The notes under the pieces were generated by a model. The model was not told the origin of the DNA and searched no databases. It saw nothing but the letters and a program-made list of their open reading frames with translations. 64,000 bases of DNA, taken from contig JAUCBJ010001234.1 of NCBI GenBank assembly GCA_032718475.1, forward strand, positions 17,366-81,365, given 5' to 3'. Shown here piece by piece: positions 3,027-49,489 of the stretch. The stretch comes from Nemertoderma westbladi (taxonomy: Eukaryota; Animalia; Xenacoelomorpha). The stretch's first letter is position 1. Each line of letters opens with the position of its first letter. The position numbers and the translations under genes were made by a program.

Positions 3027-3868
3027 ATGTCCTGGAATATAGTGTCGTAATTCAGTCATAAGGACCCTCCCAAATTTTTTTACAATTATAGTAATGTGAA
3101 CGTATGAAATTTGAAACAGCTATAGTTCACCTCCTTTCTCCCTAGTGGGTGAGTCAGAATTTTTATTTTTGCTTTTATTCTTTAGCTACAAGCGTTTGAA
3201 AAAAGTGCCTCCAGGATAGTCGTACTGCAGTTATTCCTCAATCTTATATTGTTGGTACCAATGGAAAGCTGGTCATGTAAGGATTCCAAATATGTAAAAA
3301 TATTTTAATTTGGTTTGGAAATAGGTTTGGACATATGGTCATTCGAATGTTGCATGTATTTGCTTCCGCAGCAGGCTAATAATTATTATATTTAATAAAA
3401 TACACAATATTCTGGAACATGTTGTTTATCTCAATAGAAGCTGGGCAACAATGCAATGGCTATATAATAATACAAGTACGTGGATATTCATACATAAACA
3501 AAATGTTCTAGAACATGGTGTGTTTATTAAATATAATAAAATGGCCAGCAGCGGAAGTAATACATGCAACATTCGAATGCCCTTTTAATTTCCAACCAAA
3601 TTTTAACATTTTTGGAATCCTTGCATGGCCAGCGCTACCAACAAATTAATGAAGAATAACTGTAGTACAACTGCTGCAATATCGCTGGAGACACTTTTTT
3701 TAAACACTTATAGCTAAAGAAAGCAAAAAAAAAAAATTCTGATTCACCCACTAAGGAGAAAGAAGGTGAACTATAGCTGTTTCAAATAACCCATTATGAA
3801 TATTTGTAGAAAACTTTGGGGGGGGGGGGGTCCATGTCACTGAATTATGACTCAATATTCCAGGACAT
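3027..3868. mobile_element. Foldback-type MITE with ~400-bp inverted arms
   Basis: ATGTCCTGGAATA...GAAACAGCTATAGTTCACC...GCATGTATT on the left is mirrored by AATACATGC...GGTGAACTATAGCTGTTTC...TATTCCAGGACAT on the right. Confidence 0.75.
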
Positions 3869-5447: not shown

Positions 5448-5538
5448 CTACGGCTCAGCTAAATCCCGGAGGGTCGCCAGCTGATCTTCGGAAACACCGA
5501 GTTCCAACAATGAAGGTTCTTCTTCGTCTAACCACTTA
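5448..5538 (-). CDS. MSRA: MsrA terminal coding exon
   Basis: Acceptor ...ATCTGTTTCAG at 5539-5549 (minus); phase-2 join gives I-KWLDEEEPSLLELGVSEDQLATLRDLAEP-TAG, resembling the LGL.E.Q helical tail of invertebrate MsrA. Confidence 0.75.
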
Positions 5539-29881: not shown

Positions 29882-30619
29882 GTTATTGATTAAACCAAAA
29901 CACTGATAGTAACTGCATTATAGCCTATACCGACCGACCATACTGTACTGTAAATTATAACAGTATGTCTATATTTACGCACCACAGTAGTATAAGTACG
30001 GTACAGTACATGTCATGATGTGCACAGTAGGCCTACAGAGAAGTGCGCCATCTACTATAGAGTAACAAGAGTTAAATCTATATGATAATCTCTACATTAT
30101 GTGTCATCATTTATTTGACCAGAACGCCGCTATTATTTTGCACAATTATTAATTGATTAAATTGTTAATGAACAGTATGTGCAGTAAACAGTTCGACGTG
30201 TAATCATATGCGCTTTAGGCTACAATAATTAGCATAATCAGCTGTGCATTCGGGTTTTATATATAACCATATGGCGTACATGTGAGTTAATGTCAACAAT
30301 ATATCGGAATTGAGTTATTTATTGAGTCATACCGCGCTGCTTTTGGCCGCACCACATCATACTGTTATAGTATTGACAAGGAATAGGGTTGGGTTGGAGC
30401 GCGAAAAAATTGTTGGGGTATAGATAAAATTGACTAAGGGGTAACAAGGTGCCCTGAATCGAATGTCGGAGTGTATTTTTTGTAGAAATACGAGGAAACG
30501 GTCAAAATGGCGGGTTTAAGTAATCACGGAAAGCCAATTTTGAAACTCTACTGTGATTGGCTGAGGCTACAGATTTGACATCACTACAAAGTGCTCTGAT
30601 AATTTTTTATCTTGGTTTC

Positions 30620-31915
30620 TGTAAAAGCTTCTGTGGGATATAACTGGCCCCTTTGCTTCGCAATCCAGTTTCCCCCCAGGCGCTGGAATACTCTAAAAAG
30701 GTTCTATAACTGTATAAATATTCCCCTCGCCCTCAAGGTACCGTTACAGGTGTTTTAACGGACATAAAAGTCATTTTGCTATATACGTGTTTTAGCGGAC
30801 ATGGTAAGACAAAAAACCTGCAATGTGGCAAATACCTTTCATAGCTTAGCCGTGATGATTCATATTACAACATCTAACAGCTGGTTGCTGACATGGAAAC
30901 AGCCATTGGACGCATAGTTCTTTGTTTGGCTTGAGCCAATCAGAGCGATTTTTCCTGTCGACGTGTAGCTTTTCGGTCGATCATAAGGAGAGTGTTCAGT
31001 CTTACTGTTTTTTTTTCTTGATACTTTGTTGTTATTGCTGTCTAGGCCAGGAACAACGGCTCTAGAATCAATTCGTTTCATACTTTTATAAGAAACATTA
31101 GTAGGCTAAAATTATAGAGCGTATGACTGTTAACAATTCATATATCAACTCAATTCTTATCACTTCAATGCAATTCAATTCATATCAACTGGTTTCTATT
31201 TTTATATTATCGGTTCAATATACATTATTATACTGCTGTTTACTATTGTGTTTGGTTGAATATTATTTGGAGAACATATATAAAGAACCCAAATTTCCCA
31301 ATTTTCTTGATACACTACAGGTTAGAGAGACGGGTTATATATAGCGATTGCGACTTATATTGTTGTGGTTTGTAGTGAATTTAATGCTATTTGATAAGCA
31401 CTACATTGGTCCGTTGCTATTCTCTTTATATATGATAAAATTCATTAACGGTCGGCAAATTAGTGAGCAGTATTGTGTGTTACCGGTAGTGTGCATGATT
31501 GTGATTGATAACTAAGCATTTCCTAAAGAATGCGCCTCATACGTGAATCTTAAGCCTTACCGACTTACCGTTGTGATTAGTGTAAGTCATATCTCTGTTT
31601 ACCTAGATAGAGCGCAACGTCCTAAAGGAACTGTTAATATTTCCCGAAAGTAAATAATATTAGTCAGAAATTAATTATTAACGATCAATCGAATAATACA
31701 ATACCGTAAGCTTCACTGCAATAATAATTTAAGCCGACAGAATCCAGTCTCCTGGGATTATCCAGCGGGTGAATGGACGCGCACTAGGCTGGCTTCTGCT
31801 AATGTTGTGTTTATTGGTACTAAATATTTGTCTTCTTCTAAAAGTATATTTATAAACCAAAAGACATATAAATTTTGGCAGGTTAAACTGCTAAAGGTCT
31901 TCAAAAGCGCGTACA
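30620..31915 (+). repeat. 5' LTR
   Basis: Direct repeat of 48121-49416; three substitutions seen by eye (30869, 31616, 31753). CCAAT at ~30936 and TATAAG at 31087-31092. Confidence 0.97.
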
Positions 31916-31926
31916 ATAACAGTCAT
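31916..31926 (+). other. Primer-binding-site position, non-tRNA type (ATAACAGTCAT)
   Basis: Directly follows the LTR-terminal CA; no TGG; 31917-31926 is the exact reverse complement of LTR 31123-31132. Confidence 0.55.
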
Positions 31927-34148
31927 TGACTTTATTGCAGTAAGCAATAAAGTTGAAAGTACCGGTCAACCGGTAAACCTGAACCGGTACTTCTGTAGGT
32001 CAGTAGGCCCAACTGCCAGAACCGGTACTGCTGTAGGTCCGTAGGTCCAACTGCCAGAACCGGTACTTCTGTAGGTCCGTAGGCCCAACTGTCCTAACCG
32101 GTACTTCCAGTATAAGTACATTAGTATTATTCGATTTGATTATTGTATACCGGTAGGTCTCGATATTAAATCGGGGACGCCTGGTTTTTATTGGGATTTT
32201 ACTTAGGTCTATTTCTGTCAGTTTTATTTCCTAGTAAGTTAATATTGAGCTGAAGACGTGTAAGTCTGCTCAGATTGTTCAGATAATTGTAGGCCGGACT
32301 GTTGTCAGATTGTTGTTGGGTTTGGAGAGATTACGGCGTGTGTGGAGTTTGTCCGATAGAGTGCCAGTTAGTAAGTTGGGGCAGCCATTGCTGTAAGGTC
32401 AATCCCCTCTTAAAGAATAAGTCGTACTACCGTGTTAGAACGCATACTAACTAACAATTTTGGAATCTGCACATACTGTAGTTTATTTAGGCTTGACAGT
32501 ATTCTGCCAGCGTTTTGGCTTGTGTTTGTTTGTGTGGTCTGTTCAGATACCGTAATAGTTATTACTCAGATATTTTGTAGGCTGGATTGTTGTCTAGCTA
32601 TTATTAGGTCTGAAGAGATTGCTGCTTGTGTAGAGTTTGTCTGATAAAGTGCCAGTTAGTAAGTTGGGGCAGTCATAACTGTAAGGTCAATCCCCTCTTA
32701 AAGAATAACCCGTACTACCGTGTTAGAACGCATACTAACTAACCGTTTTGGAATCTGCACATACAGTAGTTTATTTAGGCTTGGTGGTAGTCTGCCAGCG
32801 TTTGGTTTGTATTTTGTTTGAGTATCCTGTACGGGTAGCGTAATATTTATTATTCAGAGTTTATGCGATTATTCGCAACATTCATGTCCCCAAGTTTATT
32901 CCTACAGTAATTGTGTTTGTTACACATACCGTTATAGTTAAATTAACCCCGGTACTACACGGGCTGCTTGGCGTAGGACAAGACTGGTGACTTTGTGCTC
33001 TGGTCACTCCAGCAGATGCCGTGGTTCTTTTAACTGTTCAAGTATATTTAACTACTGATTATTTGTTGTACCAGTACTTGTACCTAATTTAGGGTTTAGT
33101 GTACAGTGCTTTCCGAAAGTAATTAGTGTGTAGGCAATTATATTTGTGTTGTAAAGTGGTTAATAGGCACGCTGGATCTGGTAGTCCGCGGTAATTAACT
33201 TCCAGGTAGGAACACTCCGTGATACATAACGTAGTACCTATAGCGATACGGCTATAGGTCGTCAGGCGGTGGTATTTTCCTATCTGGACAGCGCAGTGTA
33301 TTTACTACTACTTATTATTTTCAAATACCGTAGTACCCTGTCCGTTGTAATAACCAGAATTCTAACCCTTTGTTAGACTGGTTTGTAGACTTCTTGTAAA
33401 ATTACCCTAAAAATTCGTACGTAATAATTTTTGTTGTGTTTAACTAGAGATTTAATCTCACCCGTATCGTAAGTAATTTGTAGTATTAAGTAACTTAGGT
33501 AAATTAGAAATATCAGTTTTAGTGTCAAATAAATAGCACTTCACTGAGAGCGCACAGCTTCTGTGTAGTGACCCCCAGAAATAATAACATTTATTTCAAA
33601 TATTGACAAAACCCATTTTAAACGGGTATATATCTATTATAAATCAATTCAAACGATTTATAAATAGTAGGCCTGCCATACAACAACTAGGTCTAAAATT
33701 CAGTTGGACTACTGCTTAAATAACGGTAATAAAGTAAGTTAAAGTAACCAAGTAACCCTAAATATTCAGAAAATCAATTATTCTAAAATAATTGACATAC
33801 CGGTATTTATCATAGGCTTATTATATTTATTTCTATAAATTTGAGCTGAAATCATACCGGTATTCTGTAATAATTCTAGTTCATAATTATACTTATATAT
33901 ACTATAAGTGTAAGCTGTATACCGGTATTCACGATAGGCCTATTATATATTTATATATATTTGTGCTAAAATTATATACCGGTACTCTGTGACAAACCTA
34001 GTTTACAATACTTATATATATATTATAAGCGCATACTGGTATTCTAATACTGTAATAAATTACCGGTACTAGGCCAACGGTCATACTGAATTACTAGACT
34101 TGCTTTAACTGTAACTATAGCAGTAGGCATTCAACTGTATAGCTAAAC

Positions 34149-37100
34149 ATGTCTGACACTCAGCAAACCCTGTCAGACAGCCTAATCGATACAACCATCT
34201 GTGACACAGATAGGAGTGTTGAGCGATTAAGAAAGGAGTTCAGCTCACCTCCTACTGAAAGAAAAGTCATCCCTCCAGTAGTGATATCGGACCCTAAGCT
34301 AATCCAACACCGTAGGTCCATCATCGGCACTCGGGCTCAAGTCAAACGGAACCAGGAAGCAGCTGTCCCACAGCAGCAACAGCCTAGTCAAGAAACTTGT
34401 TCCCAGCGATCAGATAGCTCCAGTAGTTCGGATACTGTCGAACTGACCCCCGAACGTGGATTGCAGATGACAGCTAAAGCTTACTCGGACCCCCTTCTCA
34501 CCCTTCCTGCCGCAGTGCTAACAACTATATTGATTGCGGTGGAAGAACATCAAGCAGATTGGGTGAGAAATAAGCGAGCGACCCAAGATAATTATGCGGG
34601 ATACGCCAGGGAAGAATTGATGTCTATTGTCGAGTCACAATGGAACTTTCCCGGACCCGGACTCCCGTTGGATCTGTCCGAGGCTACTTGGGAAGATATA
34701 CACAGGATGGGAGTGGCTAAAGATACGATGGATCCAGCTGTTTGGAAGAGGTCGGCAGCAGGATATGTGCAGGGATTCTTCGGCTCCTTAGAGAGATTAG
34801 AAGAACAACTGTTTCGACAACCACAAGGACCTCAAGAGCAGGAAGAACTGCTATATCAAGTACGCGAAAGAACCCTACGCATTCGACTAATCCTATCAGC
34901 TTTTGAGGAAACTTCCAAAAGAAGACAGGACACGTCACTGCAGGTTGCTGTCAAAACTTGGTTCCAGCGGATAGGTCTCCAAATCCAAGAAACAGACCAG
35001 TGGAAATCCCAGCTGTCTGAGAGACTAACTTATGAAGAACCAACCGATGCCACCCTTTCTCAAGTGGAAGGCGAAGAGACCTCAGAGAAACCACGAGCGA
35101 GAGACGCCATAGACATTTACCTGTCCGACTATCAGCGATTCCTAGGAGACGAAGAATTGAGGAGACGGCTGTCTGGACTTTCCCCCAATAGTGAAGGAAC
35201 CCAGCGTGTGTTAGATTCAATCGATGCTGAAATGTTAGCTGCTAACCAAGCAGAATTTGATGAAAAACTCCGCCTCGCTAGAGTCCAAGAAGAAAAAGTA
35301 AAGAAAAGACGGATAGAGGAACAAAAGGCGGCGGCTACGGCAGAAGCAGAAGTAGAAAGAAAAGCAGCGGCGGCAGAAGCAAAGGCGGAAAGAGCAGTGG
35401 CAGAAGCAGAACGGAGAGCATTTGAGCAGACTACCCAACTGGAGTTGGACAATCTGCAAGAGACGCAAGACAACATAAATAAACAGTTAACTGCTAGTCA
35501 CATGCAGATGATGAGAAAATCTACTCCCAAACGCCAGGGATACACATCCTCGGAAGAAAGTGAAACCACCGATCCTGAAGGCGGAGGAAATAGATCTCGT
35601 CTAAGCAGGCGTAGAAAAACATCTCATCGTCACAAATTGCCTGATTTGCCCCCAGCTGTTAGAAGACAACTAGCAAGCACAGACTTAGCGAGTACGGAAC
35701 CCACATACCAAACTATTCAGGTCAAAAGACTCCCTACAATAGTTGATGAGCCTGAAATAATTAGGCCTGTCGTTTCCAAAGTCACACCTGTGCTAGAGAC
35801 CCCTGTATTTCCAGAGCTTAACTCTAAGTTCCCTTTACACAGTACTACACCGCCTGTACCCGGTAGAACAGTCCATGAGAATATCCCTATCCTGGAAGCT
35901 GAGAGAGACATCAAAGATTTGTCTCCCGTCGTCCCACGTCAGCCCGCTACAATGTTGGCGACTCCCGCTTCGGCGGTCGAGTGGGTAGAGGAGGGACGGC
36001 GGGGGATGAATCTCCTGCTCGGACAGATGCAGGAGACTGTCCACCAGCTTAAGGGAACAGTAAGGGAAGGTAGAGCAGAGTTGCAAGAAGTGCAGCAAAG
36101 TATCGCGCTAGAACGCGACAAATTAGTCAATATCCAAAAGGGGATACCAATACCCCCTGTAAAATTGTGTCAACCTGTTAGGTCTGAAGTATTACATGCG
36201 CAAGGTGTGGAGCCTACACGCATCTATACTGCTAGTGAAGTAGAAACTCCTATAGCAAACCCTATTAAGGGTGATTATAGACCTGTTATTAATGATATTC
36301 CCTATAGACCTGATACTGATCCGAGAAATTTATATACCGATAATTCGATATTAAATAACACGATGGCCCAAGAAAGCTTTACGCGGCAGATGGCTAGAAC
36401 AGAAGCCCGCCAAGCGGTCAAAGTGGGAGAGATCGTCAAATTCAATGGAGATGAGATGAAATGGTTACCTTTCAACGAATATTACAAAGACAGCATACAG
36501 AACTCTGTGCTATCTAACGGAGAGAAACTTAGGTTCCTCATCAAGTGCTTGGAAGGACCTCCCAAGTTAATGGCGTTAAAGTTTATTGGACATCCAGAAG
36601 GATTAAGACAAGTATGGGATACATTAAACATCAGGTATGGTAATAAGGATAACATAGCTAAGTATTTGTATGCAAAATTAGTAGCCCCCCGACACTTCCT
36701 TAGTAGCGGGATTATAGAGTTTTCCGATGAAATTCAGGAGATCTGTAGACAATTGGACTGGTTGGGTAAGTCTTATGAATATCAGAGTTCAATGGTTATT
36801 GGAGCCGTAGTCTCTACTTTACCAAAAGGTGGAGTATGTACACGCTGGGACAAGAAAGTGTTGTACATGAATGAACAACAACGACGAAGTCCTACCATGG
36901 CTGATCTCATGTCCTTCTTAGATGGTGAGGTAAAACTACAACTCATCAAGCAGTCCAGAGAGAAAACATCGGAAAATAAGGTAAGTGAGAAACCCGCTTC
37001 TAGGAGAAGAATAACACCGGTGTGTTACACTGACGACGGCGAAAGCCAAGTTTCTCAAGAAGAGGACAGCGGGAAAGATACTGAGCGATCTTACTACGTC

Positions 37101-40100
37101 GAAAAAACCTCAAAAGATGTAAGTAAATACAAGGCTCGAAACAACGATAGGAGAGAACAGGTTGCTAAGACCCCTCCTCAGTCTCCTAACAGAATGCACC
37201 GAAGAAAACCCGAAGAAAGAACGAGAGTGCATCAAGTTACCCAAGGTAAAGTGAGTAACATAAAACCTAACTGTGCGCTGTGCGACAGGACCCACCGTTT
37301 GAGTACGTGTGCTGAATTTCTAAAGAAATCCCTTGTAGACAGACGTGCAGTTGTGTGGGACAAGCGGTTATGCTATAATTGCCTCAGACCAGGACACCAA
37401 CGGCGAACCTGTTACTCCGACATAAAGTGTGCAAAGTGTGGCGCGAAACATCACATCTTGTTACACAGTGAGTTTGAACGAGACAAACAGAGTCAGGTAA
37501 GTGAGCCCGAACTACATGTCCAATTCAGTGATGTAAATGACACTGATCAGGAGTCTGAGATGGAAGGATTCTATACTGACGAATTCTCCAACGCCAACGA
37601 ATCCTGTTATCTAATCAATACCGCAGTGTATCGAGCACTTACTTATGAAAAGGTCACCAATGATGAGTTTCCCCCAACTACTTTTGCCAAACAACCCTCT
37701 TGGAAAGCTCCAACCTCCAACGTAGGAATCAGAGAATTTCCTGTGGTGCAGGTAAGAGTTCATGGTCTTAATAAAAGTTACATAGTGAACGCCCTCCTTG
37801 ACTCTGGCAGCACAGGAACATTCATCGATCAAGAATTAGCCGAGGATATCTTTGCTGGACAACCCAAATTCCGGACTAAATTGAATATGTCAGGAATTAT
37901 GCAGGTTTGGAAATCTACCTTAACGGCAGATTACTATGTAGGTGTGTTGTCCACCCCCCAGGATAAGTTAGGAACACAAGGTATAAGGTCGGTAAAAATG
38001 GTGGCTATAAAGAACTTCGCTACTACTCAAGCAGACCTTTATAATTGGGACGAGGATGAGAGCATCCAACATCTTGAGATACCTCGATTCCAGACAGATT
38101 ATCCTGGAGTGCAAATCCTCATCGGCCAGAACGCGCATGAGGCGCTCGAAACATTGGAGAAACGGCCTGCTCAACCACAGCCACTGCAAACCTATGCAGT
38201 AAGAACTAGAGTAGGTTGGTACTTTACTGGCCCTTCCCGCAGGACTCTCGAAGAGAGAATGCCACAAGAACACACATACCAAGTACACGATTGGGAAGTG
38301 GAGAGCAGTGAGGTGGACGAACTAACTGAGGGAACACCATACTCCTCAGATAATGACGACATCTACCAACTCTTCGATGAAGAGAATACAATCGACCTAC
38401 TTACAGAAAACCAAACTTGGAAAAGTCAGGTGAACCTTTGTCAACTGATTCACCCATCGGAACCCATCGCTTACAATGACGAACTAAACGATGAGATAGA
38501 GCGCTACAACGCTAGAACTCGGGACGAACTAGCTGTACGATTCTTTACTCAGGAACTGGTAGAGCCCAATTCATATGATAAGGCTCTATCGATAGAAGAA
38601 GAAAGAGCCAAGCAAATCCAGGAAACAACTACACGTTTTTTAAAGGACCAAGGTAGGTATGAAATCGGCCTACCATTTCGAAAACGAGAACCTAGATTTA
38701 TAAATAACAGACCCTTGGCAGAGAAAAGAATCGCTCAATTATATCGACGCCTTACAGCTAATGCTTCAGCGAAAGAAATGTACCAAACTCAGCTGAAGAA
38801 ATTTATAACAAAGGGATACGCGGAGCGAGTACCGGAAGGAACACCAGTGACTGAGAGAACGTATTACTTAACACATCATTACGTTCCCAAACCCGGTAAA
38901 CCCCATGAAGTCCGAGTCGTATTTGATGGCTCTGCGCTATATATGGGCCAATCCCTCAATTCCGAGTTGTTACCAGGACCCAACTTACTCCAATCTTTGT
39001 TGGGAATACTATTAAGATTAAGACAATATTCCATCGCGTTCGCTTCTGATATAGAAGGAATGTTCTTACAAGTCAAGGCGCTGGATAGAGATAGAGATAG
39101 CCTGAGATTTCTGTGGTGGCCTGAAGGAGACCTCAACCAGAAACCGGTAGAGTACTGGATGACCATCCAGGCTTTTGGGATCATATCAAGCCCTTCCAAT
39201 GCCTGCTCCGTGGTGCGAACCACTGCGAATGACAACCGAGACTCCTTCTCCAAAGAAGTGATAGACAACATAAAACGCAATATATACATGGACGACAATT
39301 TAAGGTCCCTTCCATCAGTAGAAGAAGCCATAGCTGTCGCGAAAGGAACGGTAGAGTGTTTGAAAAGAGGTGGATTTCGACTGACGAAATTCACTAGCAA
39401 CTCCCGTGAGTTTCTGGAAGCCATACCGGTAGAAGATCGCGGAGCAAAAGACCTAGACTTAATAAAGGACGATCTTCCTGAAACCAAGACGCTAGGCTTG
39501 AAGTGGGACACTGAAAGAGACATCCTGTTTTTTCAGTTGAAACAGCGAGATAATCCAGTTCGGACCAAACGGATTTGTTTAAGTATCCTGAGCACTTATT
39601 TCGACCCATTGGGATTTATTAGCCCAGTTATATTGATTGCTCGGAGTTTAGTACAGCAGATGTGGCTTGAAAACCACTCATGGGACAATCCGCTTAAGGG
39701 AGAATTGTTGAAGAAATGGATGAAATGGGAAGATTCTCTACCTGCCATCGAGAACTTTATAATTTCCCGTGCATATTTTGGCCATGTTCTTCCTACGTAT
39801 TCCTATCAACTCCATGTGTTTGGAGACGCCAGCGATATGGGAATAGGTATAGTAGCATATCTGCGAGTCGAAACTCCGGATGGAATCAAGGTCGCCTTGG
39901 TTACCTCTAAGGCATTGATTAACAACAAGATAAAGGTTCCTCGAGCGGAGTTAAAGGCGGCTTTATACGCTACAGCCATCGGCCGGAACATAACGGAACA
40001 AATCGACTATCCACTGGAGAAAACGGTTTATTGGACCGACGCTTTACTCGTGTTGGAGTATCTCACGAAGTCTGTCAGTTTAGCGTTTTTGTTACTAACC

Positions 40101-40106
40101 GAGTAG
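34149..40106 (+). CDS. Bel/Pao Gag-protease-RT-RNase H polyprotein (5' part; frameshifted near 40070)
   Basis: Bel/Pao gag core (KFNGDEMKWLPF...EKLRFL...LNIRYGN), CX2CX3HX4C / CX2CX4HX4C / CX2CX3HH..LH, protease LLDSGS, RT (RVVFDGS, DIEGMFLQV, YMDD), RNase H (LHVFGDAS, PRAEL, YWTD). Confidence 0.95.
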   Translation: MSDTQQTLSDSLIDTTICDTDRSVERLRKEFSSPPTERKVIPPVVISDPKLIQHRRSIIGTRAQVKRNQEAAVPQQQQPSQETCSQRSDSSSSSDTVELTPERGLQMTAKAYSDPLLTLPAAVLTTILIAVEEHQADWVRNKRATQDNYAGYAREELMSIVESQWNFPGPGLPLDLSEATWEDIHRMGVAKDTMDPAVWKRSAAGYVQGFFGSLERLEEQLFRQPQGPQEQEELLYQVRERTLRIRLILSAFEETSKRRQDTSLQVAVKTWFQRIGLQIQETDQWKSQLSERLTYEEPTDATLSQVEGEETSEKPRARDAIDIYLSDYQRFLGDEELRRRLSGLSPNSEGTQRVLDSIDAEMLAANQAEFDEKLRLARVQEEKVKKRRIEEQKAAATAEAEVERKAAAAEAKAERAVAEAERRAFEQTTQLELDNLQETQDNINKQLTASHMQMMRKSTPKRQGYTSSEESETTDPEGGGNRSRLSRRRKTSHRHKLPDLPPAVRRQLASTDLASTEPTYQTIQVKRLPTIVDEPEIIRPVVSKVTPVLETPVFPELNSKFPLHSTTPPVPGRTVHENIPILEAERDIKDLSPVVPRQPATMLATPASAVEWVEEGRRGMNLLLGQMQETVHQLKGTVREGRAELQEVQQSIALERDKLVNIQKGIPIPPVKLCQPVRSEVLHAQGVEPTRIYTASEVETPIANPIKGDYRPVINDIPYRPDTDPRNLYTDNSILNNTMAQESFTRQMARTEARQAVKVGEIVKFNGDEMKWLPFNEYYKDSIQNSVLSNGEKLRFLIKCLEGPPKLMALKFIGHPEGLRQVWDTLNIRYGNKDNIAKYLYAKLVAPRHFLSSGIIEFSDEIQEICRQLDWLGKSYEYQSSMVIGAVVSTLPKGGVCTRWDKKVLYMNEQQRRSPTMADLMSFLDGEVKLQLIKQSREKTSENKVSEKPASRRRITPVCYTDDGESQVSQEEDSGKDTERSYYVEKTSKDVSKYKARNNDRREQVAKTPPQSPNRMHRRKPEERTRVHQVTQGKVSNIKPNCALCDRTHRLSTCAEFLKKSLVDRRAVVWDKRLCYNCLRPGHQRRTCYSDIKCAKCGAKHHILLHSEFERDKQSQVSEPELHVQFSDVNDTDQESEMEGFYTDEFSNANESCYLINTAVYRALTYEKVTNDEFPPTTFAKQPSWKAPTSNVGIREFPVVQVRVHGLNKSYIVNALLDSGSTGTFIDQELAEDIFAGQPKFRTKLNMSGIMQVWKSTLTADYYVGVLSTPQDKLGTQGIRSVKMVAIKNFATTQADLYNWDEDESIQHLEIPRFQTDYPGVQILIGQNAHEALETLEKRPAQPQPLQTYAVRTRVGWYFTGPSRRTLEERMPQEHTYQVHDWEVESSEVDELTEGTPYSSDNDDIYQLFDEENTIDLLTENQTWKSQVNLCQLIHPSEPIAYNDELNDEIERYNARTRDELAVRFFTQELVEPNSYDKALSIEEERAKQIQETTTRFLKDQGRYEIGLPFRKREPRFINNRPLAEKRIAQLYRRLTANASAKEMYQTQLKKFITKGYAERVPEGTPVTERTYYLTHHYVPKPGKPHEVRVVFDGSALYMGQSLNSELLPGPNLLQSLLGILLRLRQYSIAFASDIEGMFLQVKALDRDRDSLRFLWWPEGDLNQKPVEYWMTIQAFGIISSPSNACSVVRTTANDNRDSFSKEVIDNIKRNIYMDDNLRSLPSVEEAIAVAKGTVECLKRGGFRLTKFTSNSREFLEAIPVEDRGAKDLDLIKDDLPETKTLGLKWDTERDILFFQLKQRDNPVRTKRICLSILSTYFDPLGFISPVILIARSLVQQMWLENHSWDNPLKGELLKKWMKWEDSLPAIENFIISRAYFGHVLPTYSYQLHVFGDASDMGIGIVAYLRVETPDGIKVALVTSKALINNKIKVPRAELKAALYATAIGRNITEQIDYPLEKTVYWTDALLVLEYLTKSVSLAFLLLTE

Positions 40107-42166
40107 CTATTATTCTTAGTCGCACAAAGATAGATCAATGGAGACATTGCCCTGGTACGATTAATCCAGCCGATATCGCCTCCAGGGGAGCAACTCCACA
40201 GGAACTGATAGATACCCCAGATTGGTTGGGTGGACCCGACTTCCTGAGCAAGGAAGAGGATGAATGGCCTCCTCACCTTACTACGGCAGAGATTAGACAA
40301 GCCAAGGGAGCGGAGACAGTCAAACCTAAAACCCGGGCGAGTAAATCGAAGTTGTTTAAACCGACTATCGATCTATCTGTATTACATACTTCCGGGAATG
40401 ATGCTTCGGATCCACAATCCCTCAACACAAATAAGTCTGTTGTGGAAATTAGAGATAGAGATTGGAAATCTGGAATACCAGACGTCTCGCAGGGAATCTC
40501 ACCCATGCTGCAGAGAGCAATGCATCATTACAGTTCCTGGAATCGGCTCTGTAAAGCCGTCACATATTTAAGACGATGTTTTCATCATCACTGCTCCAGG
40601 ACGAAGACCATTAATGATCACGCTCCATTGACATCTGCACAAGTTCATGTTATTAAGAATTTACCCAAATATAGGATATCTGATCGTTTTCTAAAAGAGA
40701 AAATTAGTCACCAGGAGTATGAAGAAACAAATAAACAGATACTGAGACTCCTGCAATGCTATGAGGATTCCGAAAAGTACTTCCTGTTGTTGAGAAATCC
40801 ACAGATGCGCTTAAGGGATCGATTCTCGAGCACAATGATAGATGGGTTAATACGTGTTGGAGGAAGACTCACCAACGCGCCCTTATCCTTTGACACCAAA
40901 TTCCCCATACTTATTAGAAATCTTGAAGTACAAATCAAGATGATTGTAGACGTTCACTGTAAACTTTACCATGCTGGTAGAGAACGAATTCTTAGCGAAA
41001 TTCGAACTCGCTATTATTTTGATAAACCCCGTAGAGCTCTGAACCAAGTTCTTAGGAACTGCATACCCTGTAGGAAAGCATTCAGTAGGCCTTTAACACA
41101 GCGAGAGGCAGAATTACCTAGGGAACGAGTAAGCTTCTATGAACCACCTTTTACTAATACTGGTGTAGATTTATTTGGCCCTATTGAAGTATATCGTGCG
41201 AGGACTATAGTCAAGAGATGGTGTGTCATCTTCGTGTGCATGACTTGTAGAGCCATCCATCTCGATATGGTGAACGATCTATCTACTAACAGCTTCGTCT
41301 TAAGTTTACGACGACAGATCGCTCGCTTCGGGACGAGTAATACCATGAGATCGGATAAAGGAACGAACTTCATAGGTGCCAACAACGAGATACAGGCTTA
41401 CGTGAAGGACTGGAATCAAAGACAGGTGGACGACCAGCTAAGGATAACAGCGTCTAGCTGGACCTTCAACGCTGCCGACGCCCCTTGGTGGGGAGGAAGT
41501 TGGGAGAGATTAATTCGAAGTGTCAAAACCGCATTTCACTTTATAGTGCCATGCCGCGCGTATCTCACCGACGAACTTTTGCGGACGTTAATGGAGGAAA
41601 TCGCTGCCTATCTCAACGAGAGACCGCTTATGCCAGTCTCATCGAGTCCCGATTCCCTGGAAGCGCTAACACCCGCGCACTTCCTACTGAAGAAACCCGT
41701 AGCCATGCTCCCACGATCGGAGATTGCCGACGGAGACGAATACTGCCGTCGAACTTGGCAACTTATGCAGTTGCTATCCCGTCGTTTCGCTGACCATTTC
41801 GAGAAACATTATCTGCCCACGCTACAACTTCGAACTAAGTGGTTTGCGCAGCAAGAAAACGTCAGCGCCGGAGATATGGTGCTTATTGTAGATCCAGACC
41901 TCCCACGTAAACGGTGGCAGACAGGTCGTATCATCGAGACACACATTTCAGATGATGGTTTAGTACGCTCAGTAGAACTCATCGTCATGCGGCGTAACTT
42001 CAAGAAACCAGGCATCATCTTTGAGACGCAACAACTCAATCGCCCAGTTGGTCGTTTATGTTTACTGGAAAGAGACAGAGAACTCTCCGGGAACTATGGA
42101 AGGCAAGACACTCTTCCCACGACCACCTCCCTAATTCCTCAAACATCTAGGGACTCCCTAACGTGA
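40073..42166 (+). CDS. Bel/Pao RNase H C-terminus and integrase (continuation in the -1 frame)
   Basis: QFSVFVTNRV...WRHCPGTINPADIASRG; integrase H.X3.H...CIPC zinc motif, GVDLFGP, SDKGTNF, GGSWERLIRSVK; C-terminal GDMVLI...W..GRI...DGLVR. The ORF-track start at 40031 is not a real start. Confidence 0.93.
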   Translation, partial: CQFSVFVTNRVAIILSRTKIDQWRHCPGTINPADIASRGATPQELIDTPDWLGGPDFLSKEEDEWPPHLTTAEIRQAKGAETVKPKTRASKSKLFKPTIDLSVLHTSGNDASDPQSLNTNKSVVEIRDRDWKSGIPDVSQGISPMLQRAMHHYSSWNRLCKAVTYLRRCFHHHCSRTKTINDHAPLTSAQVHVIKNLPKYRISDRFLKEKISHQEYEETNKQILRLLQCYEDSEKYFLLLRNPQMRLRDRFSSTMIDGLIRVGGRLTNAPLSFDTKFPILIRNLEVQIKMIVDVHCKLYHAGRERILSEIRTRYYFDKPRRALNQVLRNCIPCRKAFSRPLTQREAELPRERVSFYEPPFTNTGVDLFGPIEVYRARTIVKRWCVIFVCMTCRAIHLDMVNDLSTNSFVLSLRRQIARFGTSNTMRSDKGTNFIGANNEIQAYVKDWNQRQVDDQLRITASSWTFNAADAPWWGGSWERLIRSVKTAFHFIVPCRAYLTDELLRTLMEEIAAYLNERPLMPVSSSPDSLEALTPAHFLLKKPVAMLPRSEIADGDEYCRRTWQLMQLLSRRFADHFEKHYLPTLQLRTKWFAQQENVSAGDMVLIVDPDLPRKRWQTGRIIETHISDDGLVRSVELIVMRRNFKKPGIIFETQQLNRPVGRLCLLERDRELSGNYGRQDTLPTTTSLIPQTSRDSLT

Positions 42167-43854
42167 TACGTCTGGAGTGGGTGTATGACTATATTATTTT
42201 ATCTATTTGTTATATTTTTATATGTGAACTTTATTATGTACTTTATTATAATCGTTTTTATTCAATTTTATTTAGTAGAATGTTATTTTTAGTGATTATT
42301 TAGTAGATTAGTGCAATATATTAGTGTTTATTACGTACGTAATTACTTATAATATATTTAGTGCGACGGCGAGAAATAATTTTTTCTCTTTCCTTACTGT
42401 CTGTATCATATTATAAATACGTGACTACAGTAAGATGAAATGTCCGTACTTATTAAAGTACAATAAAAGCCACTACTATATTTAAGTATTATTGGTAGGC
42501 AGAGTATTAGGAATGCAAAGTTCAGATCCTCGTGTCTCGGCTAAACCAAGCTCTGGGTAGACCTTGGAAACGACTTGCCTCTTCACACTGACATTGCTTC
42601 GTGCGATATTGCTCTTCTACCTTATATTAAATAATACATATAGTAGCGTGATGTCCATATAACAGTAGCGTAAAACGCAAATAAATCTGTTAAACCTTTT
42701 GACCATCTGTAATTCTAGTCGATTAAGATATCGCGGCACCCACCGATATACTTGAAAGACAAATTCTAGAATCAGTGGTTAACGTCACCAGACAAGTTCT
42801 GGAATAAATCGGTGCCCATCTTAAATATTAATTTAATATTTATTAAAATCTGTAAAATTCAGATCCGTTAACAATTCTAGTCGATTAAGATATCGTAGCA
42901 CTTCCCGATACTCTTAAAAGACAAATTTCATAGAATTAAGGATCCTATGTCCCCAGACCTGCTCTGGAATCAAATTGTGTCAATTTTAACATCAAATAAT
43001 AAAATTCACGGGAATAAATTTAAATTCATATTTTAAATGAATTTCATAAATTGTCATTTTGTACAATTTATAACATTCCCAAAATTCCATTAATTAATAG
43101 ATCATGGGAGCGGAGATTCATCCTGTTGAGTGTATTAGAGTGCGAGAATCTCCAACATATAGTCAATAGCCGATAAAATTAACAAAATCATGCATAAAGA
43201 GGATATTGACAATTAAAGAATTATTATTAAATAGCATCCCAGATCTGTATGCATGAGAATTACCCTAATTCTACCGCTAGCATTCCATAATGTCACCATA
43301 GCAACACCCACGCTAGAATTAGAAGCAAGTAAGAGAACAATAGAAAGCTTGTCACATTGCATAGCATAGAGAATACATAGCACACTGTTAGTATCCAAGG
43401 ATACACAGTAATAACGTGACATTCTGGAAGGCACTGACTAACGGACAAATGGCCTGTATGTGTACAATTGGTGACAGTTGTGTGGAATTTGTGCGTTTAT
43501 AGGTGAATGTTACTGCTAAAGTATGTTTACAGTAGCTAGTCGCAATTGTAAAAATAGCCCAACTCTCCTATAGATAGAACCTAAGTGGATCCAAGCCTTT
43601 GGGACGGACAGTGGAGTGACTTGTGCCGGTTATCGTTGTCGTGCTGTTGCTACATGTTGGCGTAAACACCGCGACGACGGTACATCGGCGCTGAGAATCC
43701 CACTGTCCGGGGGCAAAGAAAAGTAGGCAGCGACGCCCGCTCGCCTAAATACAAACTTATTTGATATTAATAAACTCAGATAGCAGATATGACGGAGTTA
43801 ATAGAAGATGATCTTGGTATTAGGGAGTGATATACTCTACCTTTACAAGCATTT

Positions 43855-46800
43855 GTGGATAGCTTAATACGCGGTGAGGCCGATCCAACCATTACGGAGG
43901 ACGATGGTCGTTATATCGAACCGCCGATGTCCCAAGAGCAACTTGCGCGTGAATTGGACTATCGAAAATTCACCACTCGCTATACGAATCGTAATGGTAC
44001 GTATATGGACTTCCTAACGACCGGCCATCCTATCGACTTACATGATACGGACGATGTAGATACAGAAAGGGAAATGGTTCTATTTAAATATCATACCCAG
44101 CGGAGTCGTAACGATAAACCGAGAATAGATCACGAAAATTCTATTCGTAATAGACTGGAAAGAGAAAACGTTGAAGAACCGGATAAACGCATCGACTTCA
44201 ACGAATACTTAGAGTTTTTGAGAGAAACCTATCTCAACGTCACTAGTCAGCAGAACTTAGAGACTCGATATCCTCAAGGTATCCATCACGACCCTGTAGT
44301 AGAACTCAAACGGCTCTATTTCACTATGATGTATCTTACCGCCGATCGTCCACTACCTGTTATCCCGGATAGTTTTGAACAAATGGAAGAATACTGCAAA
44401 ACTGGAGAACGAACACCCGCGTTTCCTCTACAGGACGTACGTCTTTGGTATTATTGTGACGAGTGTCCTAGACCTAACCAACAAACTGAAAGACATAAAC
44501 ATCCGCGGAGACGTTGCGCTAAACATAGTTTTACGCGTTACACTTACGGGAGTTTCGAGCGAAACCTGTTCGACATACCACCCACGATCGCTCGTCTTAA
44601 ACGATCACTGAATAAACCCATGATCAGAGTTCCGGAATACTCGGTCAGGCCTCCTCATTCCCTAGTGAGACCTCAAACTCTTGATCCTAACAGTATCACT
44701 GATCCTCCCGAACTATATTCCCTGTTCAAAGACTTAGTGTTACCCGAACAACTAATCGGTGGCGCTCCGGTAGTGGGTTCATTAGACATCCGCCCATCCT
44801 ACTTAGCCGGATTGGGACGCGGGCAGCTAATATCGCCCTTTGATCCTTACAATCGTCCAGGATTAAACCCGATACAACCCGCCACGGAAGTCGAGGGGAG
44901 TGTTATAAGAAACGCTTTAGACGCCATTCGACAGAAAATCGGAAAGGGGACACAAGATTGTTTAGAGAAACGTAAATTACAACAACAAGTACAATCGGTG
45001 AAGGAGTTAGCCTTGCCACAGTTTGATAGAGAAATCCAAAACCTCGAGGAAGATATCGAGCTTGGACGCACGTATTCTCTACAAGAATTTTTAGATGAAC
45101 GCTTACAGAGACAAGCGGAAGAAAATCTAATCGAAGAGAAACACACGAAACTGGAAGAAAGAGAAGAAGCCGCTTTAGCTCAACCTGAAGCTCAAATCCT
45201 CATGACGGACCTCTACTCTAAAACCGTTCATCATCCCTCTATGATTCCACATTTCGGAGACAAGCTCTTCGCGACGATACAACCTCAACCGGTTGATATC
45301 AGTACAGGATCGCAAAACCTTATCGCTGACGCCCCTATGTTACAGCGTCCGCCGATCGAGGCCGCTCGTGTTGACGGTATACTCGTTGAACCTCCGGACA
45401 ATCGAGCGGATCTTGTCCGTCGTATGGTACACGATGTCAACATACGCGCTAGACCTTTACAGAACTCGTTTTACGGGATTAAAGACCACCCTTATTACGT
45501 TAATCTGACTCAATATTATATGGTAAAACCAGAAGACCCGACACATGATTTAAAGTTTCTACCACTAATAAATCCTCTAGACATTGTCGAACTCGAACAA
45601 TTGCAGAAACATCTGGATCAGTTAGTAAAGGTAAACTCATTTAGAAAACCATATAACATTTCTCGAATCGAGAAAGATATAGAACCTCCTTATAACCTCG
45701 ATGGATTTATTAAAACTCGATTAGTCCATTGGAATCTAGATGTATTATTTGAAGAAGAGAAAATACAAAGATATGGAAATGTGGAGACGTATACCACTCG
45801 GCATATGAAGTATAGTGATCTCCCTGACGCTAACCAATGCGCCACCTTGTGGCATCCAGTAGGGATGACCCTAGAGAACGCCACCAAGGAGTGGAATGAA
45901 ACTCTTAATGTTATTGAGATGTATGGAGTTGTCACCTACGATAATGAAGGTAGCGTTCCGGTCGGAGAGCTAGGAACTACGCGCATGATCCACATCCGCG
46001 GATTAGCTGGTTCTACCCACGTGTTTACTCGAGCGTGTTCCGACTTGATTGATTATTCTTTTGAAACTCTCACCGAAACACAAAAGAATCTCCGACATGG
46101 ACAATTCGAACTCGCGCAGCGTTACGTCATTGACACCGAACGCAAACCGGCCATGGGCATCGATGGATCGATGTTACCCCAGCCCGTACTCGAGATGTTG
46201 TTCAACGAAAGAATCCTTAAAATCGGCTCAGCTGTTTATGGAGATCTCCAAAACGACTTTCGGAATATGGAGGACATTCCATACCCTTTCGTTGATACTC
46301 AGCTGATTGCTCCCTGGGCAGAAGGTCGAGGTTTCTTCCGCACCATGTATGCTAATACGTCTAGCAACATTACCAAGGTGCAACGAACTTCCATCGGACA
46401 TCTTGCCTTTCAGGAATACGGATGGAATTTCAAGATCGGAAATCCCATTAACTATCAACAGGTATACGGAGACCATTATTCTCGATTATACTTTGATGGA
46501 CCATTGACCGCACCTGGCGCCGTGTATAGCTTCATGAGTGTTCCACTCCGTCCCTCCTTAGCTATATACACGATCTTTGAAAACACCGCACTTGCCGGTT
46601 GGCTAGCCGATGTGTGCAGTCGTACTATACGTGCCCATCCATTAATACTTGGGACCAAACTCGCCAAGCTAGATGAACATAATAAATTCATCCGTTTCGA
46701 ATGTTTCCGGCGATTTTTAACCCCGTTTCGCAACGTGGATAGCCAATTTAAAGACCGCGCTTTGACCAAACTCAGCCTAAGAAACTCAGCTGCAGAGAAG

Positions 46801-48042
46801 TTGGATAGCGCTGGATTCGCCATTTTCCAAGAGATTTGTATATCGAACTTGCACTCCTCAGTTATACAAAGACCTCGAATCCCCACAGGTTATTCTGTCG
46901 TGGAAATTCAGACGATAGGTCCACCTGAAGAGACAGACACGCCCACTTCAGCTATGCACTTGGAAGACGAACCAATATGTCTAGAATCTGAAGAGATTCA
47001 GCCTATCGCGCCCCGGACCAGCGACAACGATTACATCATAGAATGGTATCAAGGCCCACAGTGTCTCACTGCGTACGATTATCGCCATGCCAACTATGTT
47101 TCTAGGCAACGTTGTCGGTTATGCGCCTCGAGAGACCACGATACGCCCATGGACACCAACGTCCGCTGTTCCTATTTCCAAGAACAACCGACTATGGAAA
47201 TTTATTGCGCATATTGCAGACTCAATAACCTGCATATCTTTGCGGTTTGCCCTCAATTTATGACTCAATGTCACCATTGTCAACTAAAGGGACATGCTAG
47301 TTTCGACTGCCCTTTTAATCACGATTTGGAAAGCGTAGATGAAATGATCACACTGCGTTACATCAGAGCTTGGGAAGCGAACGCTGATTTACATTGTGAT
47401 TCGCGCCATCGCTATTATCCCGGACGCGCTTACGAAGGAGTTTATGCGTTCCATCCTTATCTGTTCGCTTCTGTTGAACAGAAATCACGCATATCGAGTT
47501 ACGAGTTACTGAAGCGCGTCGGAGAATGTATTTCAACTAAATTCGTACGCAAATTTCTCAGGAGTGTTAATCCTAGCGACCTTCATTCCTATAACTTAAT
47601 CAATTATATCCGTCAGGATCCGGACTATGGAGACTTGTTTGTTAACTCACATCCCGAGTTGCAGGAAGTACATCGAAGGCCTTACGAATACCGAGCCCGC
47701 GAACGCGAGTTGGAAAGGACCATTAAACCCCGGAAGTTTCTAACTGCCTATGGTCCACCCACGGCCCTCGTTCAGACCACTCGTAAAGGACCCGTAAGAG
47801 CGGCTGTCTTGAAACGAGCTCTCAAAGCCGTTAGACCCCTCTCACCTGACGTTGACGTCAATCAACCCGGTACTTCGACTGGCGGATACACCGACCATAA
47901 TCCTACACCCTCTGATGCAATCATATTGCACCCTTCACCCAGGAGTTATAGCCCTCCTTGTAAAGTGGCTCGCCCCAAAGAGAAAAGGACTCTTGCTAGC
48001 TTTAAAAAACTGCGTAAACGCCGTCCGCGCAAGAAAGACTAA
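43855..48042 (+). CDS. Retrotransposon accessory ORF3: DEDDy 3'-5' exonuclease-like domain, CCHC zinc knuckles, basic NLS-like C-terminus (first in-frame ATG at 43927)
   Basis: Uninterrupted 1395-codon ORF inside the LTRs. ExoI-like VVTYDNEG, ExoII-like LPQPVLEMLFNERILKIGSAVYGDL, FVDTQLIA, SIGHLAFQEYG, ExoIII-like PLRPSLAIYTIFE; CRLC..H..C, CAYC..H..C and CHHCQLKGHASFDC; ends KKLRKRRPRKKD. Confidence 0.75.
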   Translation: MDSLIRGEADPTITEDDGRYIEPPMSQEQLARELDYRKFTTRYTNRNGTYMDFLTTGHPIDLHDTDDVDTEREMVLFKYHTQRSRNDKPRIDHENSIRNRLERENVEEPDKRIDFNEYLEFLRETYLNVTSQQNLETRYPQGIHHDPVVELKRLYFTMMYLTADRPLPVIPDSFEQMEEYCKTGERTPAFPLQDVRLWYYCDECPRPNQQTERHKHPRRRCAKHSFTRYTYGSFERNLFDIPPTIARLKRSLNKPMIRVPEYSVRPPHSLVRPQTLDPNSITDPPELYSLFKDLVLPEQLIGGAPVVGSLDIRPSYLAGLGRGQLISPFDPYNRPGLNPIQPATEVEGSVIRNALDAIRQKIGKGTQDCLEKRKLQQQVQSVKELALPQFDREIQNLEEDIELGRTYSLQEFLDERLQRQAEENLIEEKHTKLEEREEAALAQPEAQILMTDLYSKTVHHPSMIPHFGDKLFATIQPQPVDISTGSQNLIADAPMLQRPPIEAARVDGILVEPPDNRADLVRRMVHDVNIRARPLQNSFYGIKDHPYYVNLTQYYMVKPEDPTHDLKFLPLINPLDIVELEQLQKHLDQLVKVNSFRKPYNISRIEKDIEPPYNLDGFIKTRLVHWNLDVLFEEEKIQRYGNVETYTTRHMKYSDLPDANQCATLWHPVGMTLENATKEWNETLNVIEMYGVVTYDNEGSVPVGELGTTRMIHIRGLAGSTHVFTRACSDLIDYSFETLTETQKNLRHGQFELAQRYVIDTERKPAMGIDGSMLPQPVLEMLFNERILKIGSAVYGDLQNDFRNMEDIPYPFVDTQLIAPWAEGRGFFRTMYANTSSNITKVQRTSIGHLAFQEYGWNFKIGNPINYQQVYGDHYSRLYFDGPLTAPGAVYSFMSVPLRPSLAIYTIFENTALAGWLADVCSRTIRAHPLILGTKLAKLDEHNKFIRFECFRRFLTPFRNVDSQFKDRALTKLSLRNSAAEKLDSAGFAIFQEICISNLHSSVIQRPRIPTGYSVVEIQTIGPPEETDTPTSAMHLEDEPICLESEEIQPIAPRTSDNDYIIEWYQGPQCLTAYDYRHANYVSRQRCRLCASRDHDTPMDTNVRCSYFQEQPTMEIYCAYCRLNNLHIFAVCPQFMTQCHHCQLKGHASFDCPFNHDLESVDEMITLRYIRAWEANADLHCDSRHRYYPGRAYEGVYAFHPYLFASVEQKSRISSYELLKRVGECISTKFVRKFLRSVNPSDLHSYNLINYIRQDPDYGDLFVNSHPELQEVHRRPYEYRARERELERTIKPRKFLTAYGPPTALVQTTRKGPVRAAVLKRALKAVRPLSPDVDVNQPGTSTGGYTDHNPTPSDAIILHPSPRSYSPPCKVARPKEKRTLASFKKLRKRRPRKKD

Positions 48043-48110
48043 CTGTTTAGAGTATTTACGTATATTAGAAACTGTGATTTTGTATATTTTATAGACTCAA
48101 ATCCCATTTT

Positions 48111-48120
48111 CTGGGAGCGG
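48111..48120 (+). other. Polypurine tract before the 3' LTR
   Basis: CTGGGAGCGG immediately precedes TGTA, a typical short Bel/Pao PPT. Confidence 0.7.
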
Positions 48121-49416
48121 TGTAAAAGCTTCTGTGGGATATAACTGGCCCCTTTGCTTCGCAATCCAGTTTCCCCCCAGGCGCTGGAATACTCTAAAAA
48201 GGTTCTATAACTGTATAAATATTCCCCTCGCCCTCAAGGTACCGTTACAGGTGTTTTAACGGACATAAAAGTCATTTTGCTATATACGTGTTTTAGCGGA
48301 CATGGTAAGACAAAAAACCTGCAATGTGGCAAATACCTTTCATAGCTTAGCCGTGATGATTCATATTACGACATCTAACAGCTGGTTGCTGACATGGAAA
48401 CAGCCATTGGACGCATAGTTCTTTGTTTGGCTTGAGCCAATCAGAGCGATTTTTCCTGTCGACGTGTAGCTTTTCGGTCGATCATAAGGAGAGTGTTCAG
48501 TCTTACTGTTTTTTTTTCTTGATACTTTGTTGTTATTGCTGTCTAGGCCAGGAACAACGGCTCTAGAATCAATTCGTTTCATACTTTTATAAGAAACATT
48601 AGTAGGCTAAAATTATAGAGCGTATGACTGTTAACAATTCATATATCAACTCAATTCTTATCACTTCAATGCAATTCAATTCATATCAACTGGTTTCTAT
48701 TTTTATATTATCGGTTCAATATACATTATTATACTGCTGTTTACTATTGTGTTTGGTTGAATATTATTTGGAGAACATATATAAAGAACCCAAATTTCCC
48801 AATTTTCTTGATACACTACAGGTTAGAGAGACGGGTTATATATAGCGATTGCGACTTATATTGTTGTGGTTTGTAGTGAATTTAATGCTATTTGATAAGC
48901 ACTACATTGGTCCGTTGCTATTCTCTTTATATATGATAAAATTCATTAACGGTCGGCAAATTAGTGAGCAGTATTGTGTGTTACCGGTAGTGTGCATGAT
49001 TGTGATTGATAACTAAGCATTTCCTAAAGAATGCGCCTCATACGTGAATCTTAAGCCTTACCGACTTACCGTTGTGATTAGTGTAAGTCATATCTCTGTT
49101 TACCTAGATAGAGCGCCACGTCCTAAAGGAACTGTTAATATTTCCCGAAAGTAAATAATATTAGTCAGAAATTAATTATTAACGATCAATCGAATAATAC
49201 AATACCGTAAGCTTCACTGCAATAATAATTTAAGCCGACAGAATCCAGTCTCCCGGGATTATCCAGCGGGTGAATGGACGCGCACTAGGCTGGCTTCTGC
49301 TAATGTTGTGTTTATTGGTACTAAATATTTGTCTTCTTCTAAAAGTATATTTATAAACCAAAAGACATATAAATTTTGGCAGGTTAAACTGCTAAAGGTC
49401 TTCAAAAGCGCGTACA
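48121..49416 (+). repeat. 3' LTR
   Basis: Offset 17,501 from the 5' LTR; ends CGTACA followed by the TSD GTTTC. Confidence 0.97.
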
Positions 49417-49489
49417 GTTTCTACTGTATGGATAGTGATTTTCGATCCATTCAAATAGGTCTACACAGTAAACCAAGCGCAGGGGCCCA

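Follow-up and report, generated by a model that had tools for sequence, protein, structure and literature searches.

In a 64,000-nucleotide stretch of DNA from the xenacoelomorph Nemertoderma westbladi (assembly GCA_032718475.1, contig JAUCBJ010001234.1, positions 17,366 to 81,365; 'the window', whose first letter is position 1 in all coordinates below), there is an 18.8-kb long terminal repeat (LTR) retrotransposon of Bel/Pao type, whose third open reading frame, ORF3, stands in the slot of env. ORF3 is a real, well-placed accessory gene, probably under selection, and its product is predicted to combine an exonuclease domain of the RNase D (DEDDy) type with three Cys/His knuckles.

A third reading frame in the env slot

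An earlier note on this DNA, made by a model from the letters alone, had described an intact frame of 1395 codons, and the frame at 43855-48042 does indeed run through 1395 residues without a stop; the count begins at a GTG (43855), from which residues are numbered here, the stop-to-stop frame being 43831-48042 and the first ATG (43927) giving a protein of 1371 amino acids. One acceptor-like AG, at 43849, lies upstream of this ATG. ORF3 is situated inside the LTR pair, between the end of the integrase frame (42166) and the 3' LTR (48121), and its guanine plus cytosine (GC) fraction, 0.455, equals that of gag-pol. The position in the env slot of a Bel/Pao host, as proposed in the note, is thus borne out by the Pfam domains and the LTR pair described below. 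No membrane segment was found in ORF3, again as claimed (the maximum hydropathy over 19 residues is 1.21), and, since it has no env-like membrane anchor, ORF3 is not an env. In most Bel/Pao elements gag and pol are enough (PMC8742986); most of them replicate without such a gene, and ORF3 is therefore accessory.

The sequence contains the N-terminal cluster of Cys and His that had been described (44455-44526) and, at 48004-48039, the basic tail. Three CCHC knuckles had been placed at 47113-47310; there are three Cys/His knuckles there, but only the third has the canonical spacing CX2CX4HX4C, since in the first the last Cys is preceded by X10, and in the second the His by X5. The N-terminal half of the protein matched no PHROG or NCBIfam family at an expect value (E) of 10 or below, and no Pfam family.

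The predicted exonuclease domain

The five motif residues are at the positions that the note had given them: D696 and E698 of the ExoI motif (codons at 45940 and 45946), D797 of ExoII (46243), and Y905 and E909, assigned to ExoIII (46567 and 46579). Its description of the domain as of WRN/EXD/Mut-7/RNase D type survives as far as 'DEDDy-type', but the nearest named sequence match is RNase D, and not WRN or Mut-7. Among the 18,950 models of NCBIfam, the only ones to match the domain at E<=10 were two for RNase D (E 0.0034 and 0.026), on the ExoII stretch. The same stretch of P0002, one of two distant relatives found for ORF3 (see below), gave the second Pfam match of that protein, to DNA_pol_A_exo1 (E 0.2). 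When a profile made from ORF3 and P0002 was run against 401 bacterial genomes, 62 matches (E<=0.05) were obtained in 61 genomes, 60 of them on the ExoII stretch; all 13 that were checked, among 30 fetched, are RNase D, and all eight that lie in genomes also searched with PF01612 fall inside PF01612 matches. In profile comparisons, the probability was 94% against pooled DEDDy sets (a pool that includes an RNase D set selected by the profile itself); with 58 unselected DEDDy sequences as the target, the two-sequence profile or P0002 reached 34-46%; a control of 30 DEDDh sequences stayed below 1%, at the level of shuffles (12 per set, with scores <=18). In the Atlas search, 25 of 30 matches belonged to the PF01612 set (best 0.92, in a cluster 50% of whose members carry the family); neither of the two best clusters has a name, and 4-10 of every 100 shuffled proteins also attain 0.9. 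The results from NCBIfam, from the Pfam match of P0002, from the bacterial genomes and from the Atlas are independent of how the alignments were chosen.

D696 and E698 align with the bacterial Asp and Glu in every multi-family MAFFT run, and the predicted ExoI strand has a predicted local distance difference test (pLDDT) score of about 86 in the guided model discussed below. D797 was likewise aligned in every multi-family run, and together with its flanking block was matched by NCBIfam, hhalign and the bacterial genome search. As sequence assignments, ExoI and ExoII are secure. The assignment of ExoIII to Tyr-x3-Glu is likely, and depends on the alignment: it holds at Y905/E909 in three of four MAFFT modes with trimmed domains, and the motif is shared with P0002, whose ExoIII aligns with the bacterial one; in ORF3 the assignment rests on the link from ORF3 to P0002 and from P0002 to RNase D.

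When AlphaFold was guided by 87 rows of bacterial DEDDy sequence, the model had a pLDDT of 63, with a core at 83-94 and a confident helix starting at E909. Its best fold matches are RNase D of Escherichia coli (E 1e-4) and, with Z scores from 12.0 to 9.6, diDNase, Pol I, RNase D, Exd1, Egl, WRN, Rrp6 and Nibbler; the top matches are all DnaQ-like, the first having a Z of 12.0 and a root-mean-square deviation of 3.1 over 144 aligned residues. With the DEDDy rows in its alignment the model is partly circular, and it speaks for compatibility with a DnaQ-like fold only; an unguided, single-sequence model had a pLDDT of 30. A regular expression for the motif order, which matched none of 20,000 shuffles, was discarded as fitted to ORF3 and missing P0002.

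Several observations are less favourable to a DEDDy assignment. Pfam gave nothing for ORF3 at E<=1 (one weak knuckle match appeared in a piece), and, when used alone against the unselected DEDDy sets, ORF3 reached 0.8%, which is the level of shuffles. The Atlas match shares 166 features, slightly fewer than true members of the family typically do (170). The ExoIII alignment failed with the whole of P0002, and other runs put the motif at Y871 or Y891, or split it; residues 205-238 of the guided model, Y905 included, have a pLDDT below 50. The fourth acid is Glu in ORF3, whereas it is Asp in all 76 bacterial DEDDy sequences in which a pattern found the motif (87 examined). No paper on what a Glu at ExoIII does turned up in the literature search. 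The PHROG matches of ORF3 were noise, and sequence searches of the PDB gave no nuclease. On balance we consider it highly probable that this is a DEDDy-type exonuclease domain, and we would lean moderately towards its being catalytically active.

Compared with cellular DEDDy proteins (RNase D, NrnC/diDNase, Rrp6, WRN, EXD2, Nibbler/Mut-7, Exd1 and Egalitarian), the domain has in common the D-x-E of ExoI, the ExoII Asp with an RNase D-like flank, and a predicted RNase H-like core; its identity to them is low (10-23%), however, and it has a Glu in ExoIII, is fused to knuckles and contains two insertions, each about 30 amino acids long. Pfam detected no HRDC domain in ORF3.

Relatives of the ORF3 protein

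A phmmer search with residues 600-1216 of ORF3 against 1.84 billion representatives found two proteins at E<=0.001, both of them singletons without a name. P0002 (648 amino acids) is 29% identical over the nuclease; it has the D-x-E, the ExoII block with its Asp and the Y-x3-E at places equivalent to those of ORF3, as well as three knuckles followed by the same aromatic segment. P0003 (633 amino acids) has a degenerate nuclease and the knuckle module in two copies. Its gene is at 124-2022 of a 3.7-kb contig (L001) in which neither pol nor LTR is present; an acidic open reading frame starts 1.3 kb further on (3390-3685) and runs off the contig. From these sequences, the layout of exonuclease plus three knuckles is old and recurs elsewhere, its tie to mobile elements being seen here in ORF3 alone. 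No close cellular homologue of ORF3 was found among the 1.84 billion representatives, and no relatives among the viral contigs, genome contigs, phages and plasmids that were scanned. Word-index protein searches gave no further relatives; one of them failed to recover even P0002 and P0003, and these negative results therefore carry little weight.

The host element

The features of the element, and the evidence for each, are as follows.

30615..30619, no strand: target-site duplication of 5 bp, left copy; repeated identically at 49417-49421, after the 3' LTR
30620..31915, + strand: 5' LTR, 1296 bp, TG...CA; 3 differences from the 3' LTR
31916..34148, + strand: leader, 2.2 kb, with 38-bp and 288-bp tandem repeats (sequence)
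34149..40106, + strand: Gag-protease-reverse transcriptase-RNase H frame, 1985 amino acids (Pfam domains and motifs); frame break near 40060-40070
39923..42166, + strand: remainder of pol in the next frame, in which RNase H ends and integrase (HHCC, DDE) and DUF5641 follow (Pfam and motifs)
42167..43926, + strand: AT-rich spacer, 1.76 kb (GC 0.36, against 0.455 in the reading frames)
43927..48042, + strand: ORF3, 1371 amino acids from ATG, no membrane segment (translation, hydropathy)
43927..45858, + strand: N-terminal half of ORF3, with the Cys/His cluster at 44455-44526 (no PHROG, NCBIfam or Pfam family)
45862..46641, + strand: predicted RNase D-type (DEDDy) exonuclease domain with two insertions; D696, E698, D797, Y905, E909 (sequence, profile and model evidence)
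47113..47451, + strand: three Cys/His knuckles, then a conserved aromatic/basic segment common to P0002 and P0003
48004..48039, + strand: basic tail, a possible nuclear localization signal (from sequence)
48113..48120, + strand: short purine-rich tract directly 5' of the 3' LTR (sequence)
48121..49416, + strand: 3' LTR (self-comparison)

The two 1296-bp LTRs, found by comparing the window with itself, differ at 3 positions (99.77% identity), and the whole element is 18,797 bp long with the same 5 bases at both ends. With LTRs 99.8% identical, the insertion is recent. The self-comparison gave no second LTR pair or duplication that would indicate a nested insertion inside the element.

In the Gag-Pol frame Pfam identified DUF1759 (E 1.2e-11), Peptidase_A17 (E 1.8e-35) and Asp_protease_2 (E 0.027), and in the second pol frame Integrase_H2C2 (E 7.6e-07) and DUF5641 (E 2.8e-20); Peptidase_A17, DUF1759 and DUF5641 all exceed their curated cut-offs. 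The order protease-reverse transcriptase-RNase H-integrase is evident from motifs at 37794, 39285, 39819 and 40955-41501, the reverse transcriptase being recognized by motif, with no Pfam match. Gag contains three Cys/His knuckles of the Bel/Pao sort, a triple knuckle in Gag being a feature of this group. By its domains, then, the element is of Bel/Pao type, a description that does not extend to formal membership of a family of the international virus-taxonomy committee (ICTV). The single frame break in the RNase H region (near 40060-40070) may be a mutation, an assembly error or a programmed shift. The part of Gag upstream of DUF1759 (34149-36440, some 760 amino acids) includes a charged helical stretch and has no Pfam match. 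The 8-base purine tract at the edge of the 3' LTR occurs also at 43106-43113 in the spacer, at 40306, and twice outside the element, perhaps by chance.

With the Belpaoviridae and Bel/Pao elements generally, this one shares LTRs, the three-knuckle Gag, the protease-reverse transcriptase-RNase H-integrase order, Peptidase_A17, DUF1759 and DUF5641. It is, however, 18.8 kb long with LTRs of 1.3 kb, whereas Bel/Pao elements are reported to measure 4.2-10 kb, with LTRs of 0.2-1.2 kb and with env as the sole third gene (PMC8742986, and the available part of PMC3118150); here the third gene is nuclease-like. A further difference is in the primer site, which according to the ICTV profile is 18 nucleotides matching a host tRNA (PMC8742986): TGG is absent from the first 45 nucleotides of the leader, leaving no recognizable tRNA primer site of the TGG type. 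Ten nucleotides of the leader (31917-31926) can pair with LTR positions 504-513 (31123-31132), which 25 of 3000 shuffled LTRs also achieved.

There is a precedent for the nuclease. The earlier note had pointed to DEDDy reading frames in rotifer retroelements, correctly: the LTR elements Juno and Vesta and the Athena/Terminon elements have DEDDy ORF3s, described in the available text as showing a change of DEDD to DEED, with no activity shown (PMC5408684). The case is repeated in two reviews (in the parts available of PMC6431247 and PMC5718144), and a DEDDy exonuclease is listed among known accessory domains in the accessible part of PMC6338049. The rotifer proteins resemble ours in being RNase D-like, in standing in the env slot, in having no membrane segment, in having one acid replaced by Glu, and in that their function is unproven; the host, in contrast, is here of Bel/Pao type. 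We rejected the idea that the Glu of ORF3 is the rotifer DEED variant, since as written the position differs: the third acid is altered in DEED (going by the text available), the fourth in the D-E-D-E of ORF3. Nor are the triple-knuckle module and the N-terminal extension of 640 amino acids described in that text (PMC5408684). We found no Bel/Pao element with an exonuclease in the literature covered, outside which lie subscription journals, Repbase, supplements and the Terminon paper, any of which could hold a prior case.

Copies and maintenance in the family

Four public sequencing runs, from four studies and two organisms, were compared with 34100-48120 of the window. All 30 bins of this interval were covered in all four runs, and in one (X1) 97,123 of 8.9 million contigs fit the element, many at 90-99% identity (summed depth is not copy number). 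The family is highly repeated, and is present in both organisms. Sequence differences are considered here from the 40 best supported of 3,633, among which ten of the 14 in ORF3 are silent (expected fraction 0.22-0.31; p 0.0001-0.002), as are six of 16 in gag-pol and three of three in the integrase. Twelve of the 15 contig records listed for ORF3 are free of gaps, at up to about 20% difference, and among the 12 indels listed of 156, six are in the 1.76-kb spacer and one is in ORF3. From these comparisons ORF3 looks constrained.

On the other side of the account, the 40 differences, of which seven non-coding ones were dropped, are a non-random sample, and X1 is possibly the window's own source. 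Three of the four runs contain copies without 44158-46961 (joined 44157/46962), and three, including one from the second organism, have a frame-changing one-base indel at 45801, just 5' of the nuclease domain. No contig spanning from pol to ORF3 was seen in another copy, all of the listed pieces being short. The internally deleted copies are non-autonomous derivatives that lack the nuclease domain or most of the reverse transcriptase. Contigs joining across 44157/46962, and also across 38363/40131, occur in several runs. Taking both sides together, we have little doubt that ORF3 is being maintained as an accessory gene and that its domain is of DEDDy type.

What might ORF3 do?

An RNA-type nuclease, knuckles and a basic tail point to RNA. 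In the role that we favour, the ORF3 protein, with its predicted RNase D-type 3'-5' exonuclease domain and predicted RNA-binding module of three knuckles, would be made from a separate, possibly spliced message; the knuckles would bind RNA, and the protein would act in trans on small RNAs or on their antisense or double-stranded precursors, degrading or trimming the silencing RNAs of the host and helping the family to attain a high copy number. By analogy, such a trans-acting counter-silencing nuclease is the likeliest of the roles weighed, though we would put its chances somewhat short of even; the separate message, RNA binding by the knuckles, action in trans on small RNAs and the high copy number make, jointly, an equally tentative proposal. 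Roles in small-RNA pathways are on record for Mut-7, Exd1 and Maelstrom (PMC5408684), and an arenavirus exonuclease (ExoN) has a role in immune evasion, according to the part available of PMC7968707. Less encouragingly, the rotifer study found no clear tie between a DEDDy ORF3 and the number of copies, and in the ORF3s that it sequenced, which were env-like or GDSL, variation was mostly neutral (PMC5408684).

Might the domain instead be a weak or dead nuclease serving as an RNA-binding surface, as in Egalitarian and Exd1, which with the knuckles would coat, shield or carry the 17.5-kb element RNA, or sequester small RNAs uncut? The replacement of the ExoIII Asp by Glu and the two insertions would suit such a role, as would P0003, which has lost most of its nuclease motifs and doubled its knuckle module; the fold matches include Egl (Z 10.3) and Exd1 (Z 10.8), in a ranking from the guided model, and RNA binding by Egl is, in the text available, independent of its catalytic residues (PMC13186709). 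However, ORF3 and P0002, only 29% identical, have both retained the Tyr and, at each of the four positions, an acid, and dead domains usually retain fewer catalytic residues than that. With the degenerate nuclease of P0003 in view, a binding-only role, absent from the earlier note, is a serious rival, but we regard it as rather unlikely. Slightly less likely again is that ORF3 processes nucleic acids of the element itself, for instance by cutting a self-primer back to the point where it pairs, or by trimming the 3' ends of RNA or cDNA in the particle. The leader has no TGG in its first 45 nucleotides and pairs with the LTR, the nearest named family, RNase D, trims structured RNA, and 3'-end processing of element RNA was raised by Rodriguez et al. 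(PMC5408684); against this, ten base pairs are short, and ORF3 lies outside Gag-Pol.

Proofreading for the reverse transcriptase on a very long genome, in the manner of nidovirus ExoN, is the weakest of the three functions that the earlier note had proposed, and we think it improbable. In length the element is about double what is reported (4.2-10 kb), DEDDy proofreading domains of Pol I are among the fold matches of the guided model, and nidovirus ExoN accompanies genomes above about 20 kb, in the partial source consulted. Yet much of the extra length is ORF3 itself, the gene is separate from pol, the sequence affinity is greater to RNase D than to Pol I (one RNase D set having been selected by the profile itself), and the larger Ogre and Burro elements are described without an exonuclease in the available part of PMC6431247. 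More improbable still is that ORF3 is a recently captured passenger, from a host gene or another element, of no use to the retrotransposon. Deleted and frame-shifted copies, and the want of a contig linking pol to ORF3 among the short pieces listed, would fit a passenger, but not the 4.1-kb open frame, the excess of silent changes, the gap-free pieces down to about 80% identity, the presence of ORF3 in a second organism or its GC content, the same as that of gag-pol; nor did the element contain another LTR pair or an internal duplication, and no close cellular homologue was found among the representatives searched.

Elsewhere in the window

Two host-type genes are present as single long open reading frames, Med16 (797 amino acids, 53599-55992) and a gene for an SH3-RhoGEF-PH protein (852 amino acids, 16743-19301); this may reflect an intron-poor genome, or they may be retrocopies. 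Flanking the element, the two genes mark its host as an animal. Tandem arrays occupy about 5500-14000, 26550-28400 and 57700-64000, and are of three types: 41-bp units in a higher-order repeat of about 760 bp, units of 47/53 bp, and a strongly C-skewed array.

Significance

The concept of a retroelement with a DEDDy cargo has already been published for other retroelements, which limits the surprise; the new host group, the size, the expansion and an unannotated protein family make ORF3 a good candidate for an anti-silencing enzyme encoded by a transposon. The range of this cargo is extended from Gypsy-type and Penelope-like elements to Bel/Pao, the reported length of Bel/Pao elements is nearly doubled, and the layout of the protein matches nothing in Pfam and has, in a set of 1.84 billion representatives, only two distant relatives. 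In a bolder form of the counter-silencing proposal, which we consider speculative and on present evidence unlikely, an old mobile family of exonuclease plus three knuckles would have been swapped between retroelements as an enzyme that counters silencing by small RNAs, and its capture would have allowed a giant Bel/Pao family to expand massively in an animal genome; the transposon would then encode a nuclease directed at the pathway of PIWI-interacting RNAs (piRNAs) or small interfering RNAs (siRNAs). On the question whether animal transposons encode enzymes against piRNA or siRNA silencing, ORF3 provides an intact, apparently selected candidate in a young, high-copy family, and one that is directly testable, as it can be expressed alone and assayed.

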